From NCBI GenBank assembly GCA_965215195.1, contig CBDCDC010000002.1:2080001-2144000 (forward strand): 64,000 bases of DNA, in the 5' to 3' direction. The translations under genes were made by a program, and so were the position numbers. Within the stretch, counting starts at the first letter, position 1. Every line of letters starts with the position of its first letter. Shown piece after piece: positions 16,254-37,314 of the stretch. The notes under the pieces were generated by a model that saw only the letters and a list, made by a program, of their open reading frames with translations, did no database searches and was not told the origin of the DNA. Source of the stretch: Candidatus Latescibacterota bacterium (lineage in GTDB: Bacteria; Latescibacterota; UBA2968; UBA8231).

Positions 16254-17592
16254 AGCCTGGTACTTCGCTCTTTTTGCTGTCCTCACCGCCAGCGGCTGTG
16301 GCGACCAGAGCTCACAGGAGCGGGCCGAAGCCGCATACGCCGAGGCCAAGCGTCTGGCCGAGACTGGCCGCTATCTCAAAGCCATCGCAGCTTGCCAGCA
16401 AGCCCTAGCAGTGGATCAGCAGCATCTCGAGGCACTCCTGCTTGCCGGTTCCATCCTCCAGAAGCAGGGCGATTTTGAGCTGGCTATTCGGCACATTGCC
16501 CAAGCCGTGCAACTCTATCCGGACCATGTCGAGGCCCGTATTGCGCTGGGCGATCTGTACATGCGAAAGCGCCACAACGACCTTTCTGCCTCGGCCTACG
16601 AGGAGGCGATTTCGCTGGCTCCCGACCGCATTTCTCCCTATCGCAAGCTCGCCATAGTCCTCAGCAATCAGGGCCGCTATGACGATGCGGTTGCAGCCTT
16701 GCTCAAGGCACTTCAGCTCGAACCGGAGAATGCCGCCACCCACTACAATCTGGGAGCAGTCTACGAGCAATTGGCCCACGCCGATTCGGCGATTGCGGCG
16801 TACGAGCAGACAGTGGCCCTCGATTCCTCTTATGTCGATGCACACTATCACCTCGGACAGATCTATACCAAGTTAGGGCACCTTGAAGAGGCCGAGGCGA
16901 GCTGCAGAGCCGTTCTCCGCCACGATCCGGGATACGCCAATGCTTATACCTTGCTGGGACAGGTGTTCCTCCAGCAAGGGCGGACCGCCGAAGCGGAAAC
17001 TGCCTTTAAGAAAGCTCTTGCCGCCGACCCCTTTGAAAAAGAAGCCTATCACCGGCTTGGGACGCTCTACCTCAGACAGGCAAGAACTGAGGAGGGCCAA
17101 AAGCTGCTGGCCGCTTTCCAGCGCCTGCGAAAAGCGAGCGATGATATCAACCGCTACCGATATATCCTGACGCTCTACCCGGAAGACGCAGATGCCCGCT
17201 ACAATCTCGGGGTGCTCTATGCCGGCCTAGGCCATTTCCCGGTGGCGGCGGCCGAGTACCAACAAACTCTGGCCATCAATCCCGCTGACCTGAGTGCCCG
17301 CAACAACCTAGCCAATATCTTTCTCCGGCAAGGGAAAATAGCCGCGGCGATCGGCCAATACGAGAAGATCCTAGAGCTCAATTCCCGCTATGTCCAAGCC
17401 TATTACAACCTCGGAAACGCCTACATGGCCCTGGGCGATGTGCAGCGGGCGACCCGGGCTTTCCACAAAACCATCAAAATAGAGCCCAATCACGCCGATG
17501 CGCACTACAGCTTGGGCATGATCTACCTCGGGCAAGACCGGAAGGCAGAAGGCGAGGCGGAACTGGAGATATACCGGCGTCTGACAGAGTAA
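16234..17592 (+). CDS. Tetratricopeptide-repeat lipoprotein
   Basis: Lipobox ASGC; many 34-aa YNLG...A...P repeats. Confidence 0.9.
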   Translation: MQKPLSKAWYFALFAVLTASGCGDQSSQERAEAAYAEAKRLAETGRYLKAIAACQQALAVDQQHLEALLLAGSILQKQGDFELAIRHIAQAVQLYPDHVEARIALGDLYMRKRHNDLSASAYEEAISLAPDRISPYRKLAIVLSNQGRYDDAVAALLKALQLEPENAATHYNLGAVYEQLAHADSAIAAYEQTVALDSSYVDAHYHLGQIYTKLGHLEEAEASCRAVLRHDPGYANAYTLLGQVFLQQGRTAEAETAFKKALAADPFEKEAYHRLGTLYLRQARTEEGQKLLAAFQRLRKASDDINRYRYILTLYPEDADARYNLGVLYAGLGHFPVAAAEYQQTLAINPADLSARNNLANIFLRQGKIAAAIGQYEKILELNSRYVQAYYNLGNAYMALGDVQRATRAFHKTIKIEPNHADAHYSLGMIYLGQDRKAEGEAELEIYRRLTE

Positions 17593-17881
17593 TGCCACCG
17601 ACCTCTAAAGAAGTCGGCTTTACCCTCTCCCGCTCTTCCGCCGCGACTCGGTATTCAGCGAGCGAGAGGAGTATACGAGACGCATTACCACCGTACTGGC
17701 TGCTTGGCTTGGAAACCGTCGCCGTTTCCAAACGCCTCCTCGGTATCCGGCCGCAGCACCGTCAGGCGTGTAGATACCTACCAGAACGCGAACGCCAGCA
17801 GGACCAGAGGCAACAAGGTTGCGTGGACCCGGCCCGGAGTCGGTTGAACGCTCTGGGGTCTGAAGGTTGGGTGCTCAACCT
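17589..17881 (+). ncRNA. Putative omegaRNA/HEARO-like structured RNA scaffold, copy 1
   Basis: GTAATGC...GCATTAC closing stem, GCTGC/GCAGC, TTGGAAAC/GTTTCCAA, GGCGT/ACGCC, GCAAC/GTTGC and terminal GGTTG/CAACC stems; covariation with copy 2. Confidence 0.65.
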
Positions 17882-18027
17882 AAAAAGGAAATACGAGCAA
17901 GTATTCACCCCGTCAACCTTTTTCAACCGACTCCGGGACGGACCCCGCCGGGTGCGTTGCCCGCCCGTCGTCCGTTGAATCCTTATCCCTCTGACGTTTC
18001 AAAACGTCAGTATCCCAGGAGGTTTTT
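17589..18027 (+). mobile_element. Non-autonomous IS200/IS605-type (OMEGA-like) element, copy 1
   Basis: Homologous to 36803-37314; subterminal hairpins at both ends (CCGAC-CTCTAAAGAA-GTCGG and CTGACGTTT-C-AAAACGTCAG); followed by ATGA; removing it restores CTG ACA GAA TGA. Confidence 0.75.
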
Positions 18028-18077
18028 ATGATATCAGAAGGTGCTAAAAATAAGCTCACGGGTTTTTTATGGCGATA

Positions 18078-19748
18078 ATGAAGTATGTGTTTTGTCTCGC
18101 AGCAGCGGTTGTTCTCCACCTGCCGGCAAAGGCCGAGGTCCAGTTCGCCGATGTCACTGCTGAGGCTGGGATTGCCTTTCGCCACCAGAATGGGGCGACA
18201 GGGGAAAAGCATCTCCCGGAGACGCAGGGTTCGGGAGTGGCTTTCTTTGATTACGACGCCGATGGCTGGCTCGACCTATACTTTGTCAACATCGCCGGGC
18301 CGGGGGGCCTTTACCGCAATCGAGGCGACGGGCACTTTGAGGAGATCGCGGCCACTGCCGGGGTGGCCGAATCGGGCCACGGGATGGGCTGTGCCGCGGC
18401 AGACTACGACCAGGACGGCGATCTCGACCTCTACATCACTTGCTACGGGCCCAATATCCTCTACCGCAACAATGGCGATGGGCGCTTTACCGATGTGACA
18501 AGCCGCTCGGGGGTGGGCCATCCGGGTTGGAGTGCAGGAGCGGCTTTTGCAGACTACGACCAAGACGGCGATCCCGACCTCTATGTGGCCAATTACGTGG
18601 AGTACCCGCCGGAGGTAAACCCGCCCTGCATTCAAGCCAAAGGGCTACAGGTCTACTGCGGACCCGAGGCCTTCGACCCACAGGCGGATGTCTTCTTCCG
18701 CAACGAGGGGGACCAAACCTTCGCAGACGTTAGCGATGCAGTCGGCTTGCTGCCCCGGGCGGCCAAGGAACTAGGAGCTTTTTTCAGCGACTACGACCAA
18801 GACGGCGACCTAGATCTTTACGCGGCCGGCGATCGCACGCCCAATCTGCTCTACCGCAATGACGGGGACCGCTTCGCCGAAGTCGGTGTCCTCGCCGGGG
18901 TTGCTTTTAACGACGCCGGCGAGGCACTAGCCGGAATGGGGGTCGATTCGGGAGACTACGACAACGATGGGCTCTTCGACTTCTTCGTGACCAACTATCA
19001 GTGGGAGACCAACAATCTCTACCGCAACTTAGGGAACGGGTTTTTCGCCGATACCACCTTCGAGTCGGGATTGGGCATGCCGAGCCTGAGATTCTTGGCT
19101 TGGGGAACGGTCTTCTTCGACTACGACAACGACGGCGATGGCGACCTCTTCGTGGCCAACGGTCACTTAGATGACAATGTGGAGCTATTCGACACTAGCG
19201 TGACCTATGCCCAGCAGAACCAACTTTTCAGGAACGACGGTCGGGGTAGATTCGCCGATGTGACTAATTCGGCGGGATCGGGCTTGGCGCTGGTGCAGGT
19301 GAGCCGCGGGGCAGCGGTCGGGGATTACGATGAAGATGGAGATCTGGATCTGGTCGTCTCCAATAATAACCAGCCGGCTGCGCTCCTACGCAACGACGGG
19401 GGGAACCAGAATCGCTGGCTGGCTATCAAACTTGTCGGGAATTATGCTCCTGCCTCCTCTGGTCCTTCACAGGGTCAGCTTCGGGGACCCTCCAGCAACC
19501 GGGACGGCATTGGGGCCTTGGTCAAAGTCGTGGCAGGTGGTCGCTTGCAGATCGACGAAGTCAGGAGTGGGTCGAGTTTTCTGTGTCAGGATGATCTGCG
19601 TCTCTATTTTGGTCTTGGTGCGGCAAAAAAAGCAGAGCTGGTGGAGGTGCGCTGGCCTAGCGGTATCGTCGAACAGCTCACGGACGTGGCGGCCAACCAA
19701 GTACTCACTCTGTACGAACCGGATACATCCGTGAAACCTAGGCCTTAA
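18078..19748 (+). CDS. CRTAC1-family protein (FG-GAP/VCBS repeats plus ASPIC/UnbV)
   Basis: Repeated DYDxDGDLDL motifs; C-terminal SNRDGIGA...LYFGLG...VRWPSG. Start is 18069 or 18078. Confidence 0.9.
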   Translation: MKYVFCLAAAVVLHLPAKAEVQFADVTAEAGIAFRHQNGATGEKHLPETQGSGVAFFDYDADGWLDLYFVNIAGPGGLYRNRGDGHFEEIAATAGVAESGHGMGCAAADYDQDGDLDLYITCYGPNILYRNNGDGRFTDVTSRSGVGHPGWSAGAAFADYDQDGDPDLYVANYVEYPPEVNPPCIQAKGLQVYCGPEAFDPQADVFFRNEGDQTFADVSDAVGLLPRAAKELGAFFSDYDQDGDLDLYAAGDRTPNLLYRNDGDRFAEVGVLAGVAFNDAGEALAGMGVDSGDYDNDGLFDFFVTNYQWETNNLYRNLGNGFFADTTFESGLGMPSLRFLAWGTVFFDYDNDGDGDLFVANGHLDDNVELFDTSVTYAQQNQLFRNDGRGRFADVTNSAGSGLALVQVSRGAAVGDYDEDGDLDLVVSNNNQPAALLRNDGGNQNRWLAIKLVGNYAPASSGPSQGQLRGPSSNRDGIGALVKVVAGGRLQIDEVRSGSSFLCQDDLRLYFGLGAAKKAELVEVRWPSGIVEQLTDVAANQVLTLYEPDTSVKPRP

Positions 19749-19760
19749 AAGCAGGAGTAG

Positions 19761-21125
19761 ATGGGCATGGTCCGGGTTTTGTCGATTGCGGTAGCCATTG
19801 CCGTGCTTGTTAGCTGCGGAGATAATGATGCCGGCCCGGTATCATCCATTAGAACCGCTGACTGCTCTGAAGTAGAGATACATTGGGAAGGGGACTTTTC
19901 GCTTGCCACTCCAGAAGATCTAAAGGCCCTAGCAGGCGATGGCAACAGTTGCTTTACTATTAGCGGCAAACTGATCATTGAGCGAACGACCCTGACCGGC
20001 TTGGAGGGCTTGCGCAACCTCTACAGTGTCGGCGGTTTGCGACTGCGCTCCAATCTAGCCCTGACCAGCCTAGAGGGCTTGCACGAGCTCACTCGCATCG
20101 AAGGGGATCTGGAAATCGTCAACAATCGAACGTTGACCAATGTGGATGGCTTGCACAAGCTCACCCGCATTGGGGGCAAGCTGGAAATTAGAGACAATGC
20201 GTCCCTGACCAGCCTGGAGGGCCTGCACAACCTCACCCGCATCGATGGAGACTTGGGGATCTTCGGCAATGAGCCTCTGGACTATGAGGAAAGAACGCGA
20301 AGACATGCTCACAGCCTAGGCGACGAGCAAGCAGCGCGCGAGTCCGCGGGAAGCATCTTCAGCGACGGTGAGGCCCTGTCCAACCTAGAGGGTCTGCACA
20401 ACCTGCAAAGCATTGGGGGATCGCTCAAGCTCGGCCTCCCTATTGTCGGCTATAACTTTGGTCTAACTACTCTGGAGGGCCTGCGCAGCCTGCAAAGCAT
20501 TGAGGGCGATCTGCACATCCAGCACAATTTTGCTCTGACCAGCCTCGAAGGTCTGCACAACGTGCAAAGCGTCGGCGGCGAACTGCATATCCTGCACAAC
20601 GACCTTCTGACCACTCTAAAGGGCTTGGACAACTTGCGAAGCATCGGAGACAACCTAAGTCTCTACCGCAATGTCTCTCTGACCAGCCTGAAAGGTTTGC
20701 ACAACGTGCAAAGCGTTGGAGATGAATTGATAATTCGCGACAATAGACTGCTGGCCAGCCTAGAGGGCCTGCGCAGCCTCCAGAGCGTCGGCCGGGCTCT
20801 GATGATCTGGGGCAGCGATGCCTTAAAGGACCTAAAGGGCTTGGACAAGCTCACTCGGATCGAGAATCTCCTGATCCACGAAAATAATTCTCTAGCCTGT
20901 CTCAAAGGTTTGGACAACCTGCAAAGCGTCGGAAATGTCCTACAGATAGACGGCAATAGGTCTTTGGCCAGCCTCGACGGTTTGGGCAACCTGCAAAGCG
21001 TCGGGGAACGCCTGTGGATTGAGGACAACCCCAACCTGCCAAGCGATCTGGTTCAAGAATTTGCCGCCAGAATGATTGAAGGTGGCTTTGGGGGCGAGAT
21101 TACTATTATGGGCAATCAGCCATAG
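19761..21125 (+). CDS. Leucine-rich repeat (receptor L-domain-like) lipoprotein
   Basis: Lipobox LVSC; many tandem LTSLEGLxNLQSIGGxLxIxxN repeats. Confidence 0.85.
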   Translation: MGMVRVLSIAVAIAVLVSCGDNDAGPVSSIRTADCSEVEIHWEGDFSLATPEDLKALAGDGNSCFTISGKLIIERTTLTGLEGLRNLYSVGGLRLRSNLALTSLEGLHELTRIEGDLEIVNNRTLTNVDGLHKLTRIGGKLEIRDNASLTSLEGLHNLTRIDGDLGIFGNEPLDYEERTRRHAHSLGDEQAARESAGSIFSDGEALSNLEGLHNLQSIGGSLKLGLPIVGYNFGLTTLEGLRSLQSIEGDLHIQHNFALTSLEGLHNVQSVGGELHILHNDLLTTLKGLDNLRSIGDNLSLYRNVSLTSLKGLHNVQSVGDELIIRDNRLLASLEGLRSLQSVGRALMIWGSDALKDLKGLDKLTRIENLLIHENNSLACLKGLDNLQSVGNVLQIDGNRSLASLDGLGNLQSVGERLWIEDNPNLPSDLVQEFAARMIEGGFGGEITIMGNQP

Positions 21126-21460
21126 TGGAAGCCCGCTGCCAGATGCACCTCTCGTCCTGTATTCTAGGTCGCCAGCGATGATGCGGCGGAAATAGGCACC
21201 GGCATTGCGCAGGGAAACTATTATACAGGAGGCTTCATGCGACAAGTAAAATTTGGGTAGTATCCCTACCGAGCGCGTAAAGGGCGATAACTAAAAAAAT
21301 CTTGACTTCTTTAAACATTATTATTTAACTAGCCCTCAATGATTTATAATGAAGGAGGTAAAGCTCCCTCGCGTAGCGTCCAGTTTTCCATTCCTTCCTA
21401 ATCCCTGAATTGTACTCATAAATGTGCAACTGGGAGACCCTCTATTAGGGGAGATCTAAA

Positions 21461-22417
21461 ATGAAAAAATCTATTCTTTTGCTTTTGCCGTGTGCTTTGG
21501 CTCTGGCTCTTAGCGGGCCAGCTTTGGCACACACGGGCTTAGAGTTTTTTCTCCAAGAAGTGCCCGATCCTGACGCCATGACCATGGACGGCGATGACAG
21601 CGACTGGGGCTGGTTCGACAACGATCTCGCCTTGGACAGCAATTTGGATTTTTATGTGACATCAGGCGAAGTTGCTAACCCAGAGGATTATTCTGCCACT
21701 TGGCGGATAGCCTATTCTCGTCCACCCGACAACCGGCTCTACTTCTTTCTCCGGATTCAGGACGACTCCTTACGGCGGCAGGAGCCAGACTTGAAACGCA
21801 TGTGGCACGATGATTTCACCCAGTTCAACCTCGACAACGACCACTCGGGCGGTCCCGGCTTGGGGGCCAACTTGGACGAGGCGAGCAACCACCAGCGCTA
21901 TCATCTGCGCATATTGCCGGGTCCAGATGGAGTAGCGGCCTTCAACAGCCAGATCGAGGTGCTCGGCGACGAGAACTTGAGCTGGAATCAGGATGTAGAC
22001 CTTTTTGGCAACGCCACGGACGTATGGGATCTTGCCTGGACGGTTACCCCGCCGGATGCCCAGCACGGCACTCTGGATATAGAAGTCACTTGGGAAGCCC
22101 GGCTCAAAACCTACGATGCCGTTGGCCTGAGCGAGGCGGAGAGCGTACGGCACGTGTATGAGGCTGGTCAGGTCACCCACCTTGGGCCGCGGCTCACCGA
22201 TAACGACGGCAGCCTATTTCAGTACGATTTTTATCTGCAGGATAGATTTACCGGTGTTCAAAACCCGGCCCAATATGGCACAGAGGGGGATCAGTTTCCC
22301 GACTGGTTTTTGATAGGATGCGAAGACTGCCCCAATGCCGGAGGATCAGGAGCAACCGCAGTGGAGAGTTCCTCTTGGGGCCGGATCAAAAGTCATCTGA
22401 GCAATCAGTTGCGCTGA
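21461..22417 (+). CDS. Secreted protein, DOMON/CBM9-like, with C-terminal TAVESSSWGRIK motif (tandem copy A)
   Basis: Signal peptide; MTMDGDDSDW and LYFFLRIQDD motifs; 957 bp. Confidence 0.75.
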   Translation: MKKSILLLLPCALALALSGPALAHTGLEFFLQEVPDPDAMTMDGDDSDWGWFDNDLALDSNLDFYVTSGEVANPEDYSATWRIAYSRPPDNRLYFFLRIQDDSLRRQEPDLKRMWHDDFTQFNLDNDHSGGPGLGANLDEASNHQRYHLRILPGPDGVAAFNSQIEVLGDENLSWNQDVDLFGNATDVWDLAWTVTPPDAQHGTLDIEVTWEARLKTYDAVGLSEAESVRHVYEAGQVTHLGPRLTDNDGSLFQYDFYLQDRFTGVQNPAQYGTEGDQFPDWFLIGCEDCPNAGGSGATAVESSSWGRIKSHLSNQLR

Positions 22418-22525
22418 GTACTTTTTATGCTAATTTTTTCAGTAAACCCACCTTGGGCGATCCGACCCAAGCCCATGTCGGCACATAGGTGCAGACTGGG
22501 AAACCATCCAATAGGAGAGGAGAAC

Positions 22526-23482
22526 ATGAAAAGATTCACAATTTTGCCTTTGGCATGCGCGTTAGCTCTAACTTTTAGCGGGCCGGCTTTGGCACACACG
22601 GGCCTAGAGTTTTTCCTGCAAGAAGTGCCCGATCCTGACGCCATGACCATGGACGGCGATGACAGCGACTGGGGCTGGTTCGACAACGATCTCGCCTTGG
22701 ACAGCGCTTTGGATTTTCACGAGAGAAATGACAACGCCCTCGAGCCAGACGATTATGCTGCTACTCTCCGGCTGGCCTATTCTCGTTCGCCAGACAACCG
22801 GCTCTACTTCTTTTTCCGGATTCAGGACGATTCCCTGCGGCGGCAGGAGCCAGACTTGAAACGCATGTGGCACGATGATTTCACCCAGTTCAACCTCGAC
22901 AACGACCACTCGGGCGGTCCCGGCTTGGGGGCCAACTTGGACGAGGCGAGCAACCACCAGCGCTACCATATGCGCATATTGCCGGGTCCAGATGGAGTAG
23001 CGGCCTTCAACAGCCAGATCGAGGTGCTCGGCGACGAGAACTTGAGCTGGAATCAGGATGTAGATCTTTTTGGCAACGCCACGGACGTATGGGATCTCGC
23101 CTGGACGGTTACCCCGTCGGATGCCCAGCACGGCACTTTGGATATAGAAGTCACTTGGGAAGCCCGGCTCAAAACCTATGACGCCGTTGGCCTAAGCGAG
23201 GCGGAGAGCGTAAGGCACGTGTATGAGGCTGGTCAGGTCACCCACATTGGGCCGCGGCTCGTCGATAGCGACGGCAGCTTGTATCAGCACGATATGTGGC
23301 TGAAGGATAGATTTACCGGAGCTGAAAACCCGCTCACATATGACACACAGGGGGATGGGTTTCCCGACTGGATTTTGCTGGAATGCGAAAACTGCCCCAA
23401 TGCCGGAGGATCAGGAGCAACCGCGGTGGAGAGTTCCTCTTGGGGCCGGATCAAAAGTCATCTGAGCAATCAGTTGCGCTGA
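22526..23482 (+). CDS. Secreted protein, DOMON/CBM9-like (tandem copy B)
   Basis: ATG 22526 after GGAGAGGAG; also 957 bp, near-identical to copy A. Confidence 0.75.
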   Translation: MKRFTILPLACALALTFSGPALAHTGLEFFLQEVPDPDAMTMDGDDSDWGWFDNDLALDSALDFHERNDNALEPDDYAATLRLAYSRSPDNRLYFFFRIQDDSLRRQEPDLKRMWHDDFTQFNLDNDHSGGPGLGANLDEASNHQRYHMRILPGPDGVAAFNSQIEVLGDENLSWNQDVDLFGNATDVWDLAWTVTPSDAQHGTLDIEVTWEARLKTYDAVGLSEAESVRHVYEAGQVTHIGPRLVDSDGSLYQHDMWLKDRFTGAENPLTYDTQGDGFPDWILLECENCPNAGGSGATAVESSSWGRIKSHLSNQLR

Positions 23483-23524
23483 GTACTTTTTATCTGATTT
23501 TTTCATTCTGACGCTGATCGTCGG

Positions 23525-23557
23525 ACATTGGGCAGAGAGTTTCTCTCTGCCCAATGT
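23525..23557 (+). terminator. Probable intrinsic terminator hairpin
   Basis: Perfect 15-bp stem ACATTGGGCAGAGAG/CTCTCTGCCCAATGT between convergent genes; weak U-tract. Confidence 0.6.
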
Positions 23558-23702
23558 TGGTTCTACCCCCCGTATCCCGCACGACGAACCGCAAAAGCCC
23601 CTTAGCAGCAGTGAGAAGATCCTGTTTTTCGCGCCAAGGTGCCGCCCCGTTAGGTGATCCGCGGGAGCGGTACGCGCAATTCAGCTTTCATCTGTGAACA
23701 AA

Positions 23703-27111: not shown

Positions 27112-27117
27112 GTTGCT

Positions 27118-28034: not shown

Positions 28035-28056
28035 TCACTCCTCTACAACGCACTGC

Positions 28057-28622: not shown

Positions 28623-28993
28623 GGCGTCAGTTCGTGGTAGCGGTTGATCTGTGGATTGGATAGCGTGGTGACCTTTCCACCGGACCACAGCACTTCAACC
28701 GCTTCGACCCGCTCGCCGCGACCCAAGCCGAAATGGCGGACGGGCGGCCGCTGGGAGTCGAAGGACTCCCCGGTGTACATCCACTGGGTCTGGTTGCCTT
28801 GAGGTGTGTGCAGGGTGATGCGTGCGCCGATAGGGGAAACGCCGCCCGCCCCCCGCAGGCGTACGCCGAGCCAGTTGTTGTGGCCGGGCCAGACATTGTG
28901 CAAGACGTGAACCCGCTCGCGGCGCGGAGTGCCAGACCACTCGCTGACCAATAGGTCCACGCGCCCGTCGGCGTCGATGTCCATGTCGAGCAC
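28619..28993 (-). pseudogene. C-terminal ASPIC/UnbV fragment of a CRTAC1-family gene
   Basis: DIDADGRVDLLV...NNWLGVRLRG...IGARITL...HFGLG...VLWSGG; 5' part missing. Confidence 0.75.
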
Positions 28994-28994
28994 A

Positions 28995-30596
28995 GTGGTC
29001 TTCGACTACGGGCTGCCAACGGCGACCCAGGTGGCCGGGCTGACGCTCCAGGCCGACGATTGGGCCGGCTTTCGCGTGTACGGCGAATTCAACGTCAATC
29101 ACCAGTTCACCCAGTACCCGGCGCGGACGCGGGATACGCACAAGGCGTCCTCGGGCATTGGTGGGGATCGCGCGGCCCTCGGCTGGATGGTCCATGTTTC
29201 GCGCCGCTTTGCACCGTTTTTCTTCTTTGGCGAGGCATTCGGCCTAGACGCCGAGTACGACACGAGCCCGCGCTTTGTCGATAGCAGCGGCCGGGTGGAT
29301 TGGTCCAACGACGACGAAGCGCGGGCGCGGCACGTGTACGACTTTGTCGATGACAACGACGACAACGACCGCATCAACGACCAAAAGCGCCGCTTTGACG
29401 ACGGCCGCACCGCCGATCAGCGCGGCGTCCGCGCACGCACCTTTGAGGGCTTTGCCGACGACGCGGTCTTCCCGGGCCTCGACGAGAACAACGACTTCAT
29501 TTCCGACTTCAATCAAAACGATCTGCGCGAGCGTCCCAATTTCTTGCCCGACTACGAAGAGCCTTTTCTCCGCTACGAGGTCGATCGGCCCGAGTATCTC
29601 TTTGCCCTCGACCTGAACAACAACGGCTGGGGCGACCGCTTTGAAAACGACGACGCACCCGACTACCCCTACAAGCGCGACCGGCGCGGGTACAACGCCT
29701 ATCTCAGGGCGGATCTCCGGCCCGAGCTCAAGCTGACGACTGGGCAGGTGTGGGAGCGCAAGCCAACGACCGGTGCGCACAACCGCACGTACTATGCCCT
29801 GCTCGCGTACGAACAGAGCTTTGCCGGATTGGGCACACTAACGGCGTATAATTCGCTCAAGTGGGTGGCCGATGCGATCGCCGAAGACTTGGTGCAGTGG
29901 ATTCAACTGCGCCCGGTGCTCGGACGCCCGAGCAATTCCCCCGGCGGCATGGTCGCCATCCGCGACCCGCTGGGCATGAGCGACGCCTTGGTCAACAAGC
30001 TGTGGATAGGCGCTGAGCGCCGCGGCCGCGAGGGCCTCCAGAGCGAAAGCAAGCTGCTGTTTGAGTTGATCCGGCAGCCGCGAGAAGGTGCCGTCGACCG
30101 CGATGGCCGCCCCTTGCAGCGCAATGCGCGGCGCTTGGGGCTGATCAACAAGGCCGAGTACCCGCTGTATCTGGGCCGCATAACTGCGCGGCCGCGCCTC
30201 AAGCACGAGTTTTTTATGGACGACACCCCGTTCAATATCGAGCGGCAGCTAGGCACCCCCATGGCCGAGCACCGCGACTGGAGCGCGCTGGCCTCGCTAT
30301 TGATAAAGGTGCCCTTTATGAAGCGCTCGGTCGTACAATTCGGCGCGGAGTACTTGCGCTTCCGCGACGTGATCGTGGACGAGGCCACCGTCAACCCGGG
30401 CGACCCCACCGGGGACTACGACGAGACGTCCTTTGCCGTGCAGTTGTCCAATACGACATCGTACTTGGGCTATAAGCTCATGTCCCAAGTGGGGCTGCGC
30501 ATGGACAAGCGGCAGATAGAGCGCGCAGCGCAAAAGGCTCGCACTGAAACCAGCGGTTTGACTTTTGTCACAGTACAAGCGGGACTTCGTGATTAG
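28995..30596 (+). pseudogene. 5'-truncated paralog of the 9018-11663 exported protein
   Basis: Homology begins at VVFDYGLPTA (cf. IRFEYGLPTA); FPGLDENNDF and YLGY are conserved; signal peptide and ~395 N-terminal residues are absent. Confidence 0.7.
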
Positions 30597-32391
30597 GCTG
30601 TCTAAAAACCCCTCGGGCCGGTCGCTGCGGCCCCAGAGAGCTTGGGGGCGAGGGCAAGATGCCCCCGCACACCCTCCACCCCAAGGCACCCGGCGGCCCA
30701 ACGCGAGATTTAAGACCGCTTCCAAGTACGCAGTACATTGGCTGTGGCTCCTCGCTTGCTGGGCCTGCGGCACACCAACCGGGGACTTGGTGGTGGCCCG
30801 AGTCGGGGAGGTGGAAATCGACGCGCCCCAATTGCTGGAGTTTGAAGAAAGGCTACACCCGGAGCTGCGGAGCAAAAAGACGGGGGCTGACGTCTATTTC
30901 GACTACTTGCAAACCATGATCGACAAGGAGCTCATGGTCTTAGAGGCCAAAAAGCGGGGCCTCGACCAGCGCGCCGATTTCCGCCGCAAGATGGACAAAC
31001 TGCATAGCGACCGCGTCTTGCGCCGCTTTTTGCAGCTAGAGGTACACGACAAGATCGTCCACACGGAAGAGGAAATGCTGGCCCACCAGCAAGAGACGGG
31101 CCGCGACCGCGCCGTGCAGGTGCGGCGCATCGTCGTCGCTACCCTACAAGAGGCGCGAGCGATCAAGGCGGCCTTGGAGGCGGGCGACGCCTTCGACAAA
31201 TATGCCAGCCGCAACTTGCTCGCCGCGACCCAGCTAGAGGAGGGCCGCTACCTGCTCAAGGACGAGCTGTACCCACGCATCTTGCAGGAGAAGGTCTTTC
31301 CGCTAACACCGGGCCAGTTCTCGGAGCCGGTGCTCTTCAACGACCAATTCGGCGTGTACGAGGTGACGGCCGAAGCACCGGTCAAGCTCTCAGTCGTGCA
31401 GTCGGTCATCGAGGCCGAGTTGCTCAAGGAGAAGCTGCCGCCGGCCGTGCAGGCCCTGTCGGCCCGCTTGCGGCAGGAACTCGACTTTGTGGTTCACGAC
31501 CAAGCCTTGGAGAGCGTACGCGGGCGCATCGGGCAGGGTGCCAAGGCGTTTTCTGCGGACGAGCGCGAGCAGCCTATTTACGAATACGAGAGCGGCGTCT
31601 TTACCATCGGCGATCTGCTCAATTTTGCCCGCGAACTGGGCGTCGGCTTCCCAGCAGACGCGCCCGAGCGGTTCGACTGGTTCGTCAAAGACATCGTCGA
31701 GCCGCGCGCCCTGCTTTTGGCCGGTGCCTATGCAGCGGGCGTTGACCGCGAAGAAGAAGTGGTCGCTTGGTTCCAAAGGCGGTGGCTGTCAAACCTGCTG
31801 GTGGCTATGCGCCGGGACGTGGTCGATGGCGTCTTTGCCAGCCGCGAAGAAGCCCGCGCGTTCTACGACCGCCGCCCACACCTTTTCCGCCCCCTCGAAT
31901 CAATCGCCGTACAGGAAATTTTGCTCCGCACCTATGAGGAGGCGCTCGCACTGCGCGAGGAAGTGGAGCGCGGCCGCGACTTGGGCGCATTGGCCGCCGA
32001 GCACACCCTGCGCCGACGCGGCAAAGCCCACCAAGGCGAGTTTCACCTGCATCCTTGGGAGAAGCAACAGTTCGTCCCGCTCTTTGAAGCGGCGCAAGGG
32101 CAAAAAATCGGCGCACTCATCGGCCCCATCGCCGTGGAGGTCCCCGCGGCCGAGGTCCTGAGCACCGAGCCGGTCAGCGGCCCGTACTACGCCATTTTCC
32201 GCTTGCTCGATTCGACGATCAACGCCGCCCCGAGGCCCTTCGCGCAGGCCGAGCACCGCGCACGGGCGCTGGTGCGCCGCCAAAAGCAGGAGCGGCTCTT
32301 TGGGCAGTTCATCATCCAACTGCGCCACCAATACGCAGCGCAAATCGAGGTTTTCCGCGAGCAGGTGGAGGCCCTCGTCCGCAGCACTTAA
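30589..32391 (+). CDS. SurA/PrsA-like parvulin lipoprotein foldase (paralog of 14595-16253) with in-frame repeat insertion in its signal peptide
   Basis: LLACWACG lipobox-like, VVARVGEVEI, MIDKELMVLEAKKRGLD; GTG 30589 overlaps the upstream stop. Confidence 0.75.
   Translation: MIRLSKNPSGRSLRPQRAWGRGQDAPAHPPPQGTRRPNARFKTASKYAVHWLWLLACWACGTPTGDLVVARVGEVEIDAPQLLEFEERLHPELRSKKTGADVYFDYLQTMIDKELMVLEAKKRGLDQRADFRRKMDKLHSDRVLRRFLQLEVHDKIVHTEEEMLAHQQETGRDRAVQVRRIVVATLQEARAIKAALEAGDAFDKYASRNLLAATQLEEGRYLLKDELYPRILQEKVFPLTPGQFSEPVLFNDQFGVYEVTAEAPVKLSVVQSVIEAELLKEKLPPAVQALSARLRQELDFVVHDQALESVRGRIGQGAKAFSADEREQPIYEYESGVFTIGDLLNFARELGVGFPADAPERFDWFVKDIVEPRALLLAGAYAAGVDREEEVVAWFQRRWLSNLLVAMRRDVVDGVFASREEARAFYDRRPHLFRPLESIAVQEILLRTYEEALALREEVERGRDLGALAAEHTLRRRGKAHQGEFHLHPWEKQQFVPLFEAAQGQKIGALIGPIAVEVPAAEVLSTEPVSGPYYAIFRLLDSTINAAPRPFAQAEHRARALVRRQKQERLFGQFIIQLRHQYAAQIEVFREQVEALVRST
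30595..30723. repeat. MITE/REP family copy (129 bp)
   Basis: GGCTGTCTAAAAA...TTTAAGACCGCTTC ends; body closely resembles 54620-54770. Confidence 0.6.
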
Positions 32392-32544
32392 CTGACGTTA
32401 CGCATCGTCGGAGCCTGTGCGCTAGACGCTGATCGAGGTTTTGATCCGTTGCGGCCATCAGGCGTATAAGGCCGCTCAGGCGGGTCCGGTAGAGAATAAA
32501 GATCGTTATTCCCTATACCGCGCCCACTAAGTCAGCACATGGAA

Positions 32545-32625
32545 TTTTAAGGAGGCTTCCTAAGTACACGACACTACGGTTCCAGCCGGGCGATCTGGCG
32601 TCCCGCCCTCCCAAGACGCTCGAAA
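32545..32625. repeat. Degenerate MITE/REP ends
   Basis: TAAGTACACGACACTA matches the 47744 element end; GGGCGATCTGGCGTCCCGCCCTCCC is REP-like. Confidence 0.4.
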
Positions 32626-32657
32626 AGACGCGCACTCAACGTTTAAGGAGACTAAAA

Positions 32658-34556
32658 ATGGTGAGAATCGAAGCGAACATACCGTTTGTCGAGCCGCCCC
32701 AGTGGGCCGTTCTCGAGCGCAGCCTAATCGACCTGATGAACGCATCCATCGAACCGGTCGTGGAACGCTACATGCGCCCAGACGGCTCGGTGCTGTGGCC
32801 CACGAGCGACGACTTCAGCAGCATCGACGGCCTAGACGACGCGTACGAGAGCTTCCACAACTGGCCGCTCTTTTACTTGCTGGGCGGCGGCGATCCCGTG
32901 CTCGAACATTCCCACCGCGCTTGGGAGGGCATCACCCGGCAGTTTTCCCGCTACGACACCGGCCACGGCCACCCCATGGTCGTCAAAGAATACGAGCAAG
33001 GGTACGACTGGATGCACCAAGGCGAGGGGTACTTGTTTTTCTATTTGCTGTGCCTCGCCGATCCAACGCACCAAAAGAACGCCGAGCGCGCCAAGCGCTA
33101 TGCCGGCTTCTATCTCAACGAAGACCCTGCGGCCCCCAATTACGACGCCGAGAAGAAGCTCATCCGCTGCGCCCACAACGGCAGCATGGGCCCGGCGCAC
33201 CGCAACTTTGCCAAGCACTACACGACCTATCGCTACGCCCAGTGGAAACCTTGGCCCTTGCCCTTTCACGACATTCCCGGCATTGAGACGGTCGAGGACT
33301 TGCAAAAGCCGGGCATGGAAGAGAAGATGGGCCAAGCCCTCGTCGAGCGCATGAGCCGCGGCGATGTGGCCTGCAACCTCGCGGTTACCAGCATGGTGAC
33401 CAACGCCTATCTGTGCAGCGGCGACGACCAGTACCGAGCTTGGGTCGAGGAATACACCAACGCGTGGATTGAGCGCACCCGGCAAAACAACGGCATCCTG
33501 CCCGACAACATCGGCCTCTCCGGCACCATCGGCGAATACCTCGACGGCAAGTGGTACGGCGGCTACTACGGCTGGACTTGGCCGCACGGCTGGCACCACC
33601 TGAGCGACGCCTGCATTGCGGCCGCGGAAAACGCGACCTTGCTCTCCGGCGACTTGCGCTACATGGACTTTCCGCGCTCGCAAATCGACGTGCTAATGCA
33701 GCAGGGGGACATGCGGGGACAAACCCTGTACGCGCCGCACTTCTACCACGACAAAGGCTGGGATGGATACAGCCCCATGCAGGCCCATCCCACGACCCAC
33801 CTCTGGTGCATGAGCATGCAGCGAGAGGACATGGCGCGGCTCAAACAGCAGCGCAACCACGACGCGGACAACTGGCGGCAGGTAAGCTCGCACTCTTCCA
33901 AGCACGGCGGCGGCCACGAAGCCGCTTGGACCGCGTATTTAGCAGGCGAATACCCGCAGTACCCAGTCGATATCCTGCGGCACAACCACGCGCAACTATA
34001 TCAGCGCCTAGCCTTTATGCGCGACGACCAGCAAGACCCTTCCACCTACGGCGACTGGTATCTGCAAGTGCGCAACCCCATCACGGTCGAGGGCTTGGTG
34101 CAACTAACGATGGGTGCCCCGCTCTTCATGTACAACGGCGGCCTGCTCATGGCTCGCCTGCGCTACTTCGACCCGCAACGCGGCCGACCGGGCTTGCCGC
34201 CAGACGTGGCTGCCTTGGTAGAATCGCTCGCCCACGAGCGGGCCGTCCTGCACTTGGTCAACCTGCACCCGACGCAAGAGCGCGAGGTCTTGGTACAGGC
34301 CGGTGCCTTTGGCGAGCATAGCTTCACCCGCGTTGCCTTTCAGCAGCGCGTGCCCATCTCGGCTGAAGAAGCCGGCGTTGGGCACACGCACGCCGCCCAA
34401 TATCAGCAGACCGTTCAGGGGCAGCTAGAGGACCAAATAGCTACCGTACAGAATCGCCACTTCACCGTCTGCCTCCAAGCTGGCGCGGCCATTCGGCTCA
34501 ACTTGGGAATGGAGCGTTTCGTCAATAAGCCCTCGTACGCCCGGCCGTGGGATTAG
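32658..34556 (+). CDS. Conserved hypothetical protein, possible (alpha/alpha) barrel enzyme
   Basis: 632 aa with strong RBS (AAGGAG); Trp/Tyr-rich; first gene of a catabolic operon; fold is a guess. Confidence 0.6.
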   Translation: MVRIEANIPFVEPPQWAVLERSLIDLMNASIEPVVERYMRPDGSVLWPTSDDFSSIDGLDDAYESFHNWPLFYLLGGGDPVLEHSHRAWEGITRQFSRYDTGHGHPMVVKEYEQGYDWMHQGEGYLFFYLLCLADPTHQKNAERAKRYAGFYLNEDPAAPNYDAEKKLIRCAHNGSMGPAHRNFAKHYTTYRYAQWKPWPLPFHDIPGIETVEDLQKPGMEEKMGQALVERMSRGDVACNLAVTSMVTNAYLCSGDDQYRAWVEEYTNAWIERTRQNNGILPDNIGLSGTIGEYLDGKWYGGYYGWTWPHGWHHLSDACIAAAENATLLSGDLRYMDFPRSQIDVLMQQGDMRGQTLYAPHFYHDKGWDGYSPMQAHPTTHLWCMSMQREDMARLKQQRNHDADNWRQVSSHSSKHGGGHEAAWTAYLAGEYPQYPVDILRHNHAQLYQRLAFMRDDQQDPSTYGDWYLQVRNPITVEGLVQLTMGAPLFMYNGGLLMARLRYFDPQRGRPGLPPDVAALVESLAHERAVLHLVNLHPTQEREVLVQAGAFGEHSFTRVAFQQRVPISAEEAGVGHTHAAQYQQTVQGQLEDQIATVQNRHFTVCLQAGAAIRLNLGMERFVNKPSYARPWD

Positions 34557-34564
34557 GAGGCCAC

Positions 34565-35341
34565 ATGCCCAACCGCATCAAAGACCAACTCGCCGCGGAC
34601 AAGCCCGCTTTCGGTGCCCAGCTCCGCTTTGGCTCTCCGGCCATTGCCGAACTCTTTGGCCATTCGGGTTTCGACTTTCTCGTCATCGACTCGGAACACG
34701 CGCCGCAAACCCCCACTGGCATCCAAGCGCAATTGCAGGCCATCGGCAATACCCCGGCCACACCCATCGTCCGCCTGCCGCGCATTGACGAGGAGCAGAT
34801 CCGCCTCTACCTCGACATGGGTGCGCTGGGCATCCTCGCCCCGTTCGTAAGCACGGCCGCCCAAGCCGCAGAAGGCGCTCGCGCCTGCCGCTATCCGCCC
34901 GTTGGGGTCCGTGGTTTCGGACCGCATCGGGCCGCCCAGTACGGGTTGCGCACCGACGAGTACTTCGCAAAAATAAACGACTTGGTGATATTCATCGCGC
35001 TGATCGAGACGGCCGAGGCGGTCGCCAACATCGACGAAATTCTCGCCGTGGAAGGCGTTGATGCGTTCGTCATTGGCCCGGTCGATCTGTCCATTTCGCT
35101 GGGTGTGCCCTTCAACTACGAGGGCTCCGTCTTCCAAGACGCCCAAGCCCAGCTCGCTGCGGCCGCGCGCTGCGCCGGCAAGCCCGCCGGCATTGGGGTC
35201 TATCGCCCGGCCAGCGACCCGCGTGCACTCCAACGCGCCATGGACGACGGCTTCTCCCTGATCTTAGCTGGCGGCGACGAGCCTTTCTTGGCGGCAGGGT
35301 GCCAACAGATGGCGCGGGTTCGGGCGGAGTTGGGCTACTAA
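34565..35341 (+). CDS. HpcH/HpaI aldolase family protein
   Basis: GFDFLVIDSEH, RYPPVGVRG, LIETAEAVANIDEI, IGPVDLS. Confidence 0.9.
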   Translation: MPNRIKDQLAADKPAFGAQLRFGSPAIAELFGHSGFDFLVIDSEHAPQTPTGIQAQLQAIGNTPATPIVRLPRIDEEQIRLYLDMGALGILAPFVSTAAQAAEGARACRYPPVGVRGFGPHRAAQYGLRTDEYFAKINDLVIFIALIETAEAVANIDEILAVEGVDAFVIGPVDLSISLGVPFNYEGSVFQDAQAQLAAAARCAGKPAGIGVYRPASDPRALQRAMDDGFSLILAGGDEPFLAAGCQQMARVRAELGY

Positions 35342-36357
35342 TGCGCCGGCTCGAAGTCCTCTTTCTGCCCCACCCGGTCGCCGCGCTCGCCGCGCCTTGG
35401 GCGACCGACGTCATCGAGGCCGTACGCGCCCGCCACAATCTCCGCATCTTCGACCACACCCAGCCGGCCGCACCCCAACTGGCGGGCATTGAAGCCATCG
35501 TCGATTTAGGCGGCAATAGTGTCGCCAATGCTGGCGACAGGAAGCGCACCCCGGACCTGCTGGCTGCTGCGGCCGCCGCTGGCGTCAAATTCCTCCAAGT
35601 CCAGACCACCGGCCTCGACCACATTGACGTCGAAGGCATTCTCAACGCCGGGCTGCTTTTGGCGCATTGCCCCGGGCAGCTCAGCAGCGCGGCGTTGGCC
35701 CAGAGCGCGATGATGTTCATCCTCCTGCATGCCCACCGCTACGGAGAGGCGCGGCGGAATTTTGACGCTCGCAAGCTATACGCGCCTACGGGCATTGAGC
35801 TGGAGGGTCTGACGCTCGGCCTGATCGGCTTTGGCGCGAGCGCCCAAGACTTGGCGCGCCGGACCAGAGCCTTTGGCCTGCGGCTCGCGGCCATCGACAT
35901 CCGCCCTATTGCAGAGGAAATCCTCGCTGAAATCCAACCCGAATTTCTCGGCGGCCCGGCCGACACGGACCGCGTGGTGGCCGAAAGCGACTACCTATCG
36001 CTGCACCTGCACCTGACCCCGACAACCCGGCACACCATGGACGCCCGGCGCATCGGCCTGATGAAGGAAACCGCCTGCCTAATCAACGTCGCCCGCGGCG
36101 AGTTGGTCGATGAGGACGCCCTCTACCGGGCGCTGTTGGACGGTCGCTTGGGCGGGGCCGGGCTCGATGTTTTCGCCGAGGAGCCGCCCGACCGCGGATT
36201 GCCCGTTTACCAGCTACCCAACGTCTTTGTCATGCCCCACACGGCCGGTTCCACCAACGGCACCTCGCGCAAGCGGGCGCGTCTGGCCGCCGACAACCTC
36301 GACCGCTATGCTCGGGGCGAGGCGCTCGTGGGGCAGATCACGTCTAGATTTATCTAA
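35341..36357 (+). CDS. D-isomer-specific 2-hydroxyacid dehydrogenase
   Basis: GLIGFG, LINVARG, GLDVFAEEP, PHTAG. Confidence 0.9.
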   Translation: MRRLEVLFLPHPVAALAAPWATDVIEAVRARHNLRIFDHTQPAAPQLAGIEAIVDLGGNSVANAGDRKRTPDLLAAAAAAGVKFLQVQTTGLDHIDVEGILNAGLLLAHCPGQLSSAALAQSAMMFILLHAHRYGEARRNFDARKLYAPTGIELEGLTLGLIGFGASAQDLARRTRAFGLRLAAIDIRPIAEEILAEIQPEFLGGPADTDRVVAESDYLSLHLHLTPTTRHTMDARRIGLMKETACLINVARGELVDEDALYRALLDGRLGGAGLDVFAEEPPDRGLPVYQLPNVFVMPHTAGSTNGTSRKRARLAADNLDRYARGEALVGQITSRFI

Positions 36358-36395
36358 GTTTTCGCCCGAAAAGAAGAGATAGGAGATTTCTCACC

Positions 36396-36510
36396 GTGAA
36401 CGCGCTTATTGCGGGTGCCAGTTCTGGCATTGGCGAGACCAGCGCTCGGCGGCTGGCGGCGGCTCAATGTCGATGAACTAGTGCTGACGCCGCTGGGGCA
36501 GCAGTGGTAG
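36396..36510 (+). pseudogene. Short-chain dehydrogenase remnant with only its termini left
   Basis: AGGAG RBS then MNALIAGASSGIGETSARRLAA, fused out of frame to NVDELVLTPLGQQW*. Confidence 0.65.
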
Positions 36511-36802
36511 GGCAGGTGGATGCCTTGACGAGCGGCTCAATGGTGCTGATGTCGGTCGAGGCACGGGCGAGGTTGAGGTCGTACATTCGCTGGAGGTTCA
36601 GCCAGAACTCGGGAGTCATCCCTAGGGCCTGTCCAATTCGCAGCACCGTGTCCGCTGTAATTGATCTGCGGCGGTGGACGATTTCGTTGATGCGTATCGG
36701 GGCCACTCCGATGGCTTTGGCCAGACGGTACTGGCTGATGCCGAGTTCGTCCAGAATCTCGGCCAGATGTTCTCCTGGGTGGATCAGGGCAGTTGTAGTC
36801 AT
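36464..36802 (-). CDS. higA: HigA-family antitoxin (HTH)
   Basis: IHPGEHL...ISQYRLAKAIGV...RINEIV...FWLNLQ..YDL. Confidence 0.9.
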   Translation of the reverse strand: MTTTALIHPGEHLAEILDELGISQYRLAKAIGVAPIRINEIVHRRRSITADTVLRIGQALGMTPEFWLNLQRMYDLNLARASTDISTIEPLVKASTCPTTAAPAASALVHRH

Positions 36803-37314
36803 AAAAACCTCCTGGGATACTGACGTTTTGAAACGTCAGAGGGATAAGGATTTCTTCCGCGACGGGCGGGCAACGCACCCGGCGTTGTCTGCCCCCGAGT
36901 GGAAGAAAAACTACCATAGATTATCTCTATGACTACGGGGTTATGTCATAGGGAAATTTGATTTCACGCGGAACAAAACGGTAGCGATCTTTCTGTTAGG
37001 TTGAGCACCCAACCTTCAGAGCCTGTCGGGGCTACCTCTGGGCCGGTGGTACGCTGCAACTCGTTTGCGGCCTCTGGCACTGCTGGCGTTTCCTCGACAG
37101 TACCAACCCGAAAGCCTGATGGTGCTGCGGCCGGGTTGGGAGCGGGTCAGCCGATAGACGCTGATGCTATCGGTGCCAAGCAGCCAGTGCGGTTGTAATG
37201 GGTCCGGGATACTCCTGTTAGTGGCGTAGGAAACCACGTTCCTCGATGGATGCTGCACAGCGGCGGTAGAGGGCAGAGGGTAAAGCTGACTTCTTTAGAG
37301 GTCAGTGGCATTAC
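36803..37314 (-). mobile_element. Non-autonomous IS200/IS605-type (OMEGA-like) element, copy 2, inserted between the higA RBS and ATG
   Basis: Same ends as copy 1 (last ~50 nt identical); followed by ATGA; removing it restores GGAGAAGATCCA-ATG. Confidence 0.75.
36998..37314 (-). ncRNA. Putative omegaRNA/HEARO-like structured RNA scaffold, copy 2
   Basis: GTAATG/CATTAC, CTGAC/GTCAG, CCGATAG/CTATCGG and GGTTG/CAACC stems; conserved blocks ACTGGCTGCTTGGC, CCGGCCGCAGCACC, ACGCCAGCAG, TCTGAAGGTTGGGTGCTCAACCTAA. Confidence 0.65.

Follow-up and report, generated by a model that had tools for sequence, protein, structure and literature searches.

Two protein-less IS200/IS605 derivatives in a Latescibacterota genome probably carry a guide-RNA module of the TnpB type

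The window, the whole 64,000-nt stretch of Candidatus Latescibacterota DNA analyzed here, holds two copies of a structured element that lacks a protein gene. We asked whether this element carries a guide RNA and, if so, for which nuclease and on which strand. The initial annotation had proposed a stand-alone IscB/IsrB omegaRNA (HEARO-like), lying in the host-gene orientation with a 5' guide and a 3' ATGA motif. Our analysis agrees that the element is of the IS200/IS605 type and places it in a different nuclease class: both copies are probably non-autonomous deletion derivatives (PATE- or MITE-like) of a TnpB-only (IS1341-like) IS200/IS605 element with a guide-RNA module. Throughout, the top strand is the one that runs from left to right end in the sense of tnpB, which is the minus strand of the window for copy A and the plus strand for copy B. 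The features are as follows.

17589–18027, minus strand: copy A, whole 439-bp non-autonomous element; ends taken from alignment to five other loci of the same genome and from empty sites in five relatives
17589–17881, minus strand: copy A, putative guide-RNA (omegaRNA-like) module, from the AGGTTGAGCACCCAACCT hairpin to the ...GGTGGCATTAC right end
17882–18027, minus strand: copy A, left-end region, matching the left ends of full-length TnpB elements over ~110 nt from its start
17991–18010, within the left-end region: copy A, subterminal hairpin CTGACG...CGTCAG, read in the sequence and paired in the consensus fold
18028–18031, minus strand: copy A, target/transposon-adjacent motif TCAT (ATGA on the plus strand)
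17569–17588, minus strand: copy A, predicted guide in the flank 3' of the right end, placed by the known TnpB arrangement with an assumed length of 20 nt
17592–17978, plus strand: copy A, host-sense open frame of 128 codons with its own ATG; no Pfam match
18017–18022, plus strand: copy A, Shine-Dalgarno-like AGGAGG, 5 nt before the flanking ATG
36803–37314, plus strand: copy B, whole 512-bp element
36998–37314, plus strand: copy B, putative guide-RNA (omegaRNA-like) module, placed by alignment and structure as in copy A
36803–36997, plus strand: copy B, left-end region, including an additional segment of ~70 nt shared with three relatives
36799–36802, plus strand: copy B, target/transposon-adjacent motif TCAT, whose complement ATGA holds the antitoxin gene start codon
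37315–37334, plus strand: copy B, predicted guide, placed as in copy A, 20-nt length assumed
37327–37563 and 36464–36802, both minus strand: HigB-like toxin ORF and HTH antitoxin ORF, between which copy B is inserted

The description of the two as diverged copies of one element is borne out: both lie exactly where the initial annotation placed them, and pairwise alignment shows identical ends (GTAATGCCAC... and ...CCCAGGAGGTTTTT) and several internal blocks in common. Mean column identity is 79% over the aligned stretch including flanks, and BLAST gives 66% over the element. The two structure-preserving hairpin changes that had been cited, CCGAC/GTCGG versus CTGAC/GTCAG and TTGGAAAC/GTTTCCAA versus CCGATAG/CTATCGG, are both present in the alignment. 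The two ends of the element are unrelated to each other and thus form no terminal inverted repeats, as had been noted, and the subterminal hairpins described at both ends (left CTGACG...CGTCAG, right CCGAC...GTCGG) both covary.

The element is far from confined to these two places. Six loci of the family occur in the genome from which the window comes, with ATGA after each one. Of the 30 further genomes in the genus, 11 also have matches, a recurrence that far exceeds chance. Among 132 genomes of the class that were searched, the family was found in one genus only, in records titled Latescibacterota. A motif scan of genome contigs yielded 60 stretches. Most were chance hits in unrelated taxa, and the 23 that stood up in BLAST with the element ends comprise the places already known plus one further locus (L065). 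In metagenomes, an internal hairpin motif retrieved no element and a right-end motif a single full-length one (L118), so the covariation set remained at 10 sequences.

The borders of the element are well defined by its insertion sites. The initial annotation had observed ATGA after both copies and expected it to be constant; extending the tally, we find TCAT at the left end, equivalent to ATGA after the element, in 26/26 catalogued copies (24 complete copies, G024_c and the truncated c6; for six of the 26 the BLAST-projected left end is shifted by 1–2 nt). ATGA is to be read as the complement of TCAT, a 5' transposon-adjacent motif beside the left end, and not as the 3' motif of an IscB system. 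At the copy A locus, five of six orthologous loci are exact empty sites in which ...CTGACAGA is directly followed by ATGATATCAG; the sixth relative has GTGA. The upstream flank also runs into ATGATATCAG in a DNA contig (run X7) and an RNA-library contig (run X16). The RNA-library contigs of runs X16 and X18 contain the flanks and not the element, and as these contigs are strandless they have no bearing on expression. From the empty sites in relatives it follows that insertion occurs without target duplication, as had been claimed; it is precise and lies 3' of TCAT.

If the copies are derivatives of a larger transposon, its full-length relatives should reveal which protein has been lost. In the same genus we found such relatives, 1314–1329 bp long, with the same two ends and an ORF of 377–408 aa on the strand opposite to that favored by the initial annotation. 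This ORF encodes TnpB: it matches PF07282 (77.6 bits), the guided_TnpB model NF040570 (173.7 bits, cut-off 100) and PF01385. Among solved structures it matches TnpB/Cas12f chains, and the DxG, E and D motifs of the D-E-D RuvC triad align. Since the parent elements encode TnpB and not IscB/IsrB, the RNA class is reassigned, as the initial annotation had itself stipulated for parents with another enzyme. The architecture of these relatives (TCAT, left end, tnpB with an overlapping structured 3' region, right end) is that of TnpB-only elements, of which ISDra2 is the type example, with an omegaRNA overlapping the 3' end of tnpB. The module of the window copies is homologous over its last ~110 nt to the 3' end of the tnpB-bearing relatives, where it overlaps the end of the tnpB gene; its upstream ~190 nt match none of the tnpB 3' regions examined. 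In the genome of the window, loci c5 and c6 retain 134 and 126 N-terminal tnpB codons beside the same left end. The deletion derivatives c5 and G003_b keep 56–70 nt of the right end and are still bounded by complete ends. In the two window copies tnpB is gone entirely (tblastn of TnpB gives E values above 1 only), in line with the proposal that a nuclease ORF was lost while a structured, covarying, guide-RNA-like module was kept. A second TnpB clade (~40% identity) was considered as the parent of the subfamily and rejected: eight loci of this clade that we examined have related end hairpins, none of them holds the internal module, and it gives no nucleotide matches to the module's upstream ~190 nt.

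The enzymes that such a derivative would require are scarce in the genomes that carry it. In the genome of the window tnpB occurs as fragments only, none of this family being intact, and Y1 tnpA is absent. Among the six genomes holding the subfamily to which the copies belong, an intact tnpB from the closest clade is present in G024 alone. Relatives carry IS605-type elements with tnpA (134 aa) and tnpB, flanked by CCAT and ending in ...GGCTTAC, whose end hairpins are related but not identical to those of the copies. Because neither enzyme is intact in the genome of the window, the copies there are currently orphan guides, dependent on enzymes supplied in trans. The need for TnpA and a nuclease in trans had been anticipated by the initial annotation, which named IscB/IsrB as the nuclease where the parents point to TnpB.

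We then considered whether the module behaves like a structured RNA, and on which strand. The consensus structure comprises 82 pairs in 13 helices, with 96.3% of cells paired. Counted on the same 10 sequences (about five lineages) from which the structure was derived, 43 of the 82 pairs change on both sides, compared with 21.3 ± 2.5 in shuffles (0/500 reach 43) and 6–12 in slid controls. A long-range pairing reported between GTAATG and CATTAC extends well beyond the two copies, as the 6-bp helix in which the last 6 nt pair with an inner hexamer persists in 18/19 elements of three subfamilies, in the variants GTAATG/CATTAC, GTAATC/GATTAC and GTCAAC/GTTGAC, with four G-U cells and one A-C cell. 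Across the structure, the tnpB strand has 118 G-U cells versus six A-C cells, an asymmetry that G-T wobble on an excised single-stranded top strand would produce as well. RNAalifold gives the whole element −142.8 kcal/mol on the tnpB strand versus −96.2 kcal/mol on the strand of the initial annotation. Because of this asymmetry, the folding energies and the presence of TnpB on the opposite strand in the parents, the predicted RNA is assigned to the tnpB strand. It would read towards ...CATTAC, and the flank past this end would supply its guide. The guides proposed earlier thus keep their predicted target, the empty allele; the guide itself would lie 3' of the scaffold and be the reverse complement of the strings originally given. 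Scanning with a promoter consensus gave no sigma-70-like site on the tnpB strand of either copy; in the host orientation it gave one site in copy B versus 0.2 expected by chance.

How well do other explanations account for these observations? A stand-alone IscB/IsrB omegaRNA would fit the geometry of IscB elements, in which the omegaRNA adjoins the right end upstream of iscB, and TCAT resembles TTCAT, described in the literature as the adjacent motif of one Geobacillus IscB element; a literature search for TCAT as a whole word paired with TnpB found no paper. Yet the HEARO covariance model found no match in the whole window at the gathering score, or on either copy at E values up to 10 (the Rfam matches to mir-75, BjrC68 and osmY are at chance level only), and the parent elements encode TnpB. 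The RRXRR/IscB domain (PF14239) was found in 0/31 genomes of the genus, a weak negative as the positive control of that search was silent. On the strand that this explanation needs, the fold is weaker and 118 pair cells turn into A-C mismatches, and we regard it as scarcely credible.

The conserved helices could instead be single-stranded DNA structures that serve TnpA excision and integration or the stability of the circle, with no functional RNA made. According to the available part of the literature, IS200/IS605 elements are mobilized as single-stranded circles of the top strand and DNA hairpins are recognized by TnpA, and the strand with G-T wobble is indeed the top strand. TnpA is known to need the subterminal hairpins only, however, whereas here 13 helices over ~300 nt covary, and the 3' domain occupies precisely the place of the overlapping omegaRNA in tnpB elements. 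As the short right ends of c5 and G003_b are bounded by complete ends nonetheless, a purely structural DNA role is unlikely. Less likely again is that the main product lies in the host-gene orientation, as a ~145-aa protein or a cis-acting mRNA structure, and that the tnpB-strand RNA is a relic. Such a product would explain why a stop-free frame spans the whole element in 7/10 copies, with a conserved ATG at its start and the TGA of ATGA at its end. But substitutions in this frame have no codon-position bias (for example 31/37/35), different lineages read different phases of homologous sequence, the frame has no Pfam match, and the wobble asymmetry speaks against structure on the host-sense strand.

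Collectively, these data favor a TnpB-type guide-RNA module on a protein-less derivative, which would work as follows. On the top strand the order is TCAT, the left end with its subterminal hairpin, the ~300-nt RNA module in place of tnpB, the right hairpin end ...ATTAC, and the flank. By analogy with the rest of the family, a Y1 TnpA acting in trans would excise the top strand as a circle and paste it 3' of another TCAT. The module would be transcribed towards the right end and on into the flank, yielding an omegaRNA with a 3' guide; this tnpB-sense RNA would begin near the AGGTTGAGCACCC hairpin. Its guide would match the empty allele, that is, TCAT plus flank. If family biology holds here too, TnpB in trans would cut the empty allele, and recombination would restore the element.

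The same insertion sites raise a separate possibility concerning the host strand. In host-gene orientation, the subfamily begins G-TAA-TG and ends AGGAGG-TTTTT before ATGA, and GGAGG or GAGG precedes the flanking ATG in most copies. The element ATG opens at least 60 codons in 19/24 copies (20/25 with G024_c); as 36% of random ATGA sites do the same, we replaced this measure with a stricter one. A stop-free frame from the element ATG to the TGA of ATGA occurs in the seven of ten copies mentioned above, without codon periodicity. In copy A the frame is shifted and a stop falls 50 nt before ATGA; here the TAA at 17590–17592 closes the upstream TPR gene (16234–17592). We therefore tentatively propose that the subfamily may be translated across in the host orientation, sitting at operon junctions without polarity as a mobile translational bridge with a guide RNA on the opposite strand, although the odds are somewhat against it. 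In such a bridge, the right-end TAA would close an upstream gene that formerly ended in an ATGA overlap, and the overlapping ATG would open the element's frame. Selection would appear to keep that frame stop-free without conserving a peptide, and its end, ...AGG AGG TTT TTA TGA, would deliver the ribosome and a Shine-Dalgarno motif onto the host gene ATG. Ribosomes also read through Rickettsia palindromic elements (in-frame MITEs) and the short coupling ORF of integron attI, and host expression survives. Unlike these, which are not IS200/IS605 elements and have no guide RNA, the frame described here forms a cistron of its own, with a TAATG overlap at one end and an ATGA overlap at the other.

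Several known systems resemble the window copies in part. In TnpB-only (IS1341-group) IS200/IS605 elements, the omegaRNA overlaps the 3' end of tnpB; the window copies share ends and 3' domain with such elements, differ in having lost tnpB entirely, and have TCAT as their adjacent motif. The closest parallel is PATE, elements that often encode omegaRNAs on which TnpB must act in trans (Meers et al., preprint 10.1101/2023.03.14.532601). As far as the accessible text of that report describes them, PATE likewise have no protein gene, share their ends with tnpB elements, and combine a guide-RNA module with TnpA and TnpB in trans. Measured against the same text, the window copies are a new sequence family whose ~300-nt RNA module matches tnpB 3' ends over the last ~110 nt only, and their subfamily has a host-sense stop-free frame, which looks new for such elements. 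The IscB/IsrB omegaRNA (HEARO) is also a guide RNA of the IS200/IS605 superfamily that lies beside the right end and takes its guide from the flank, but its strand is the opposite one, its guide is at the 5' end, its partner protein is different, and its model has no match in the window.

A stand-alone IscB-like guide RNA would be unusual, whereas known biology leads one to expect TnpB guide RNAs on protein-less IS200/IS605 derivatives. What the window adds is a compact, well-bounded family in which compensatory changes have preserved the structure of the guide RNA across lineages. This has happened mostly in genomes where no intact nuclease of the closest clade was found, which bears on how guide-only elements persist. 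As TCAT is the complement of the ATGA start/stop overlap, the elements land exactly at gene starts, antisense to their own RNA. If the stop-free frame is truly selected, this would be a transposon that lowers its cost by preserving translational coupling.

Inspection of the sequence of both stretches confirmed the two element copies, at window positions 17589-18027 (copy A) and 36803-37314 (copy B), that the initial annotation had read as stand-alone IscB/IsrB omegaRNAs in host-gene orientation, with the guide on the 5′ side and ATGA as the 3′ motif. In an alignment, the copies have both ends and several internal blocks in common, and their differences at the hairpins cited there are indeed paired changes. 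The window's genome (G000, in which the window spans G000:C2:2080001-2144000) holds six family loci (c1-c6), and ATGA directly follows the element in 6/6, copies A and B included.

Family loci in the window's genome
c1: copy A, window 17589-18027
c2 and c3: near relatives of copy A (95% and 92% identity, respectively)
c4: copy B, window 36803-37314, 66% identity to copy A
c5: G000:C2:972037-972646, 610 bp, internal deletion with both ends intact (left end, 134 N-terminal tnpB codons, 56 nt of right end)
c6: G000:C2:1592741-1593277, truncated, left end only (left end, 126 N-terminal tnpB codons, then a break)

Five relatives (G012, G021, G002, G018 and G022) have an empty site at the copy-A locus, where the upstream flank ...CTGACAGA is directly joined to ATGATATCAG. 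As the upstream flank runs straight into the ATGA side, the boundaries of copy A at 17589 and 18027 are exact and, as had been proposed, there is no target duplication. A sixth relative, G007, has GTGA at this site. Two contigs, one of DNA from sequencing run X7 and one from the RNA library of run X16, have the same empty junction. In seven relatives, the site at the c3 locus shows GTGA together with an indel, which fits this reading, yet there is no exact empty site. On the tnpB strand (the top strand, opposite to the orientation first assigned), TCAT, the complement of ATGA, lies immediately 5′ of the left end in 26/26 catalogued copies, 6 of these left ends being shifted 1-2 nt from the BLAST projection. 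Collectively, these data show that insertion of family elements is precise and TCAT-directed. At the 17588/18028 junction in run X7, flank contigs have ~100-220x coverage, element contigs mostly have 6-15x and the joints bypass the element, suggesting that the abundant strain carries the empty allele. L011 (a 187-bp internal-deletion derivative in G024) and L065 (437 bp) both lie downstream of a 421-codon ORF, and could represent a single insertion site shared by two related genomes.

Matches to the element occur in 11/30 other genomes of the genus, and the right-end motif in 10/132 genomes of the class, all 10 within this genus; public records with the same elements are titled mostly Candidatus Latescibacterota MAGs, with some Gemmatimonadetes. 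Several matches are 1314-1329 bp long and have both ends the same as the window copies; antisense to the orientation initially annotated, they carry a 377-408-aa ORF whose stop lies 31 nt upstream of the ...ATTAC end. This ORF is TnpB: it matches PF07282 (77.6 bits), PF01385 and NCBIfam guided_TnpB (173.7 bits; cut-off 100), and aligns with TnpB/Cas12f chains of solved structure, all three acidic motifs of RuvC being in register. Thus, full-length elements with these ends encode TnpB, and not the IscB/IsrB that had been expected of a parent. The protein-less subfamily comprises 10 copies of 437-512 bp (c1-c4, G029_a/b/c, G006_a, G019_a and L065). By tblastn, we found no tnpB remnant in them (E >1), and their last ~110 nt align with the 3′ end of the tnpB elements, showing that they descend from TnpB elements.

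According to the available parts of the sources, TnpB and IscB both take their guide from the right-end flank, read on opposite strands; the strand of the RNA therefore discriminates between them. An alignment of the ~300-nt module from all 10 protein-less copies, in the sense of the tnpB strand, was folded with RNAalifold; the consensus has 82 pairs in 13 helices, with 96.3% of cells paired. Changes on both sides were seen in 43 pairs, counted on the same 10 sequences (~5 lineages) that yielded the structure, compared to 21.3 +/- 2.5 in shuffles (0/500 reaching 43) and 6-12 with sliding partners as a control. Fold energy, G-U/A-C asymmetry and a long-range helix all favour the tnpB strand over the one initially chosen. 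The whole element folds at -142.8 kcal/mol on the tnpB strand versus -96.2 on the other, and the 82 pairs include 118 G-U cells versus 6 A-C cells, so that the paired share drops from 96.3% to 82.6% when the strand is switched. The GTAATG...CATTAC pairing noticed earlier proved to be a long-range helix of 6 bp, in which an inner hexamer pairs with the final six bases before the flank; with four G-U cells versus one A-C cell, it is kept in 18/19 elements across three subfamilies as GTAATG/CATTAC, GTAATC/GATTAC or GTCAAC/GTTGAC. The suggested Rfam check gave no match to HEARO or to any other Rfam family. With parents that encode TnpB, an RNA-like module on the opposite strand and no HEARO match, the IscB/IsrB label was rejected.

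At the level of sequence comparison, these results show that the tnpB strand carries an RNA-like module with covarying helices, which adjoins the flank. The main rival explanation is that the helices serve a DNA-only role on the excised single strand; a promoter scan of copies A and B found none on the tnpB strand. By analogy with the family's known biology, as the available parts of the literature describe it, TnpA in trans would peel out the top strand and paste it 3′ of TCAT, and transcription of the module would continue into the flank, yielding an omegaRNA. TnpB in trans would then cut the empty allele (TCAT plus flank), and recombination would restore the element. For copy A, the predicted guide would extend from window 17588 towards lower coordinates (minus strand), and for copy B from 37315 towards higher ones (plus strand); both are the reverse complements of those first put forward.

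The window's genome has no match to a Y1 transposase and no intact tnpB of the family; what is present is c5 and c6, together with a C-terminal relic that is unrelated. This relic (G000:C2:4150642-4150818; PF07282, 74.4 bits, within a 155-codon open frame) has no similarity to the element ends. Across the genus, PF01797 matches occur in 15/31 genomes and full-length tnpA (~134 aa or more) in 6, and left and right end hairpins related to those of the family are found at 4/6 tnpA loci fetched. Autonomous tnpA-tnpB sister elements (L054 and L055, 1310-3037; two examined in full) have a 373-aa tnpB, a CCAT flank and the end ...GGCTTAC. Intact tnpB of the closest clade is present in G020, G024, G009, G003, G010 and G012; among the six genomes with the protein-less subfamily, only G024 has it. 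A second TnpB clade (~40% identity) is common in the genus, and its TnpB-only elements (L135-L142) have the same end-hairpin architecture, the end ...GTGGTTGAC and a CCAT or TCAT flank; the internal module was not found in them.

ATGA is a common stop/start overlap between adjacent genes (PMC6728339, available part). Read in host-gene orientation, 19/24 copies are flanked by an ATGA whose ATG begins an open frame of 60 codons or more, against a baseline of 36% of random ATGA sites. A stricter, start-like test also requires that the reconstructed empty site have a stop in the same frame no more than 20 codons upstream; 11/24 copies pass versus 9.8% of random sites. GGAGG or GAGG lies 5-7 nt upstream of this ATG in most copies, and in 8/25 copies having the right-end junction the upstream ORF now closes on the element's own TAA (bases 2-4), as does the TPR gene (16234-17592) at copy A. 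Copy B (512 bp) separates a HigB-like toxin ORF (PF05015, 37327-37563, minus) from an HTH_3 antitoxin-like ORF (36464-36802, minus) whose ATG is that of ATGA. The original spacer of this pair (36464-37563) would be 13 nt, with GAGGAG ahead of the ATG. The sole promoter-like site in copies A and B (36920-36949, minus strand, ATGACA-18-GATAAT, 10/12 matches; 0.2 sites expected by chance) is in copy B's extra segment and faces the antitoxin gene.

The GTAATG start is confined to the protein-less subfamily. From its ATG, the host-sense frame is stop-free across the whole element and closes on the TGA of ATGA in 7/10 protein-less copies, which represent three lineages (c2/c3, the G029_a group and G019_a); the remaining five frames have 2-13 stops in every copy. 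Dinucleotide shuffles give 3.9-5.9 stops, with a probability of no stop of 0.0025-0.015 per copy, and under simulated substitution-only drift from an open ancestor to the observed 28-34% divergence the frame stays open in ~2% of trials. Six of seven distinct element lengths are 2 mod 3, as an open frame needs, and both G029_a and G019_a remain open although their phase relative to c2 shifts three and seven times, respectively. Substitutions lack codon-position bias (e.g. 31/37/35). A possible reading is a translational bridge, kept for ribosome passage from the element's ATG to that TGA. The frame is broken in copy A (shifted), copy B (three stops) and G029_c, and an intact frame does not go together with a genuine gene start at ATGA: the frame is open in G006_a and G019_a, which lie upstream of 2-4-codon ORFs, whereas copy B precedes a real gene. 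For these reasons, and with few lineages behind the tests, we give the bridge somewhat less than an even chance. In full-length elements, one host-sense frame has just 3-5 stops over 1.3 kb, and long ORFs run antisense to tnpB in L014 (1643-2794, 383 aa) and L022 (1643-2695, 350 aa), both on the plus strand of the locus; this probably just mirrors the tnpB frame.

Protein-less IS200/IS605 elements with omegaRNAs, reliant on TnpB in trans, have already been published (preprint 10.1101/2023.03.14.532601, available part), and thus what we chiefly find is a new family within an already described class. Literature searches returned nothing relevant for stand-alone omegaRNA MITEs, no paper in which the whole word TCAT occurs together with TnpB and TAM, and no co-occurrence of ‘palindrome-associated transposable’ with ‘translational coupling’; among the matches listed, TTCAT is the motif of an IscB element, in the text available. 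What might be new is the combination of features at ATGA junctions: a guide-RNA module on one strand and, on the other, a stop codon, a frame free of stops and a Shine-Dalgarno motif.
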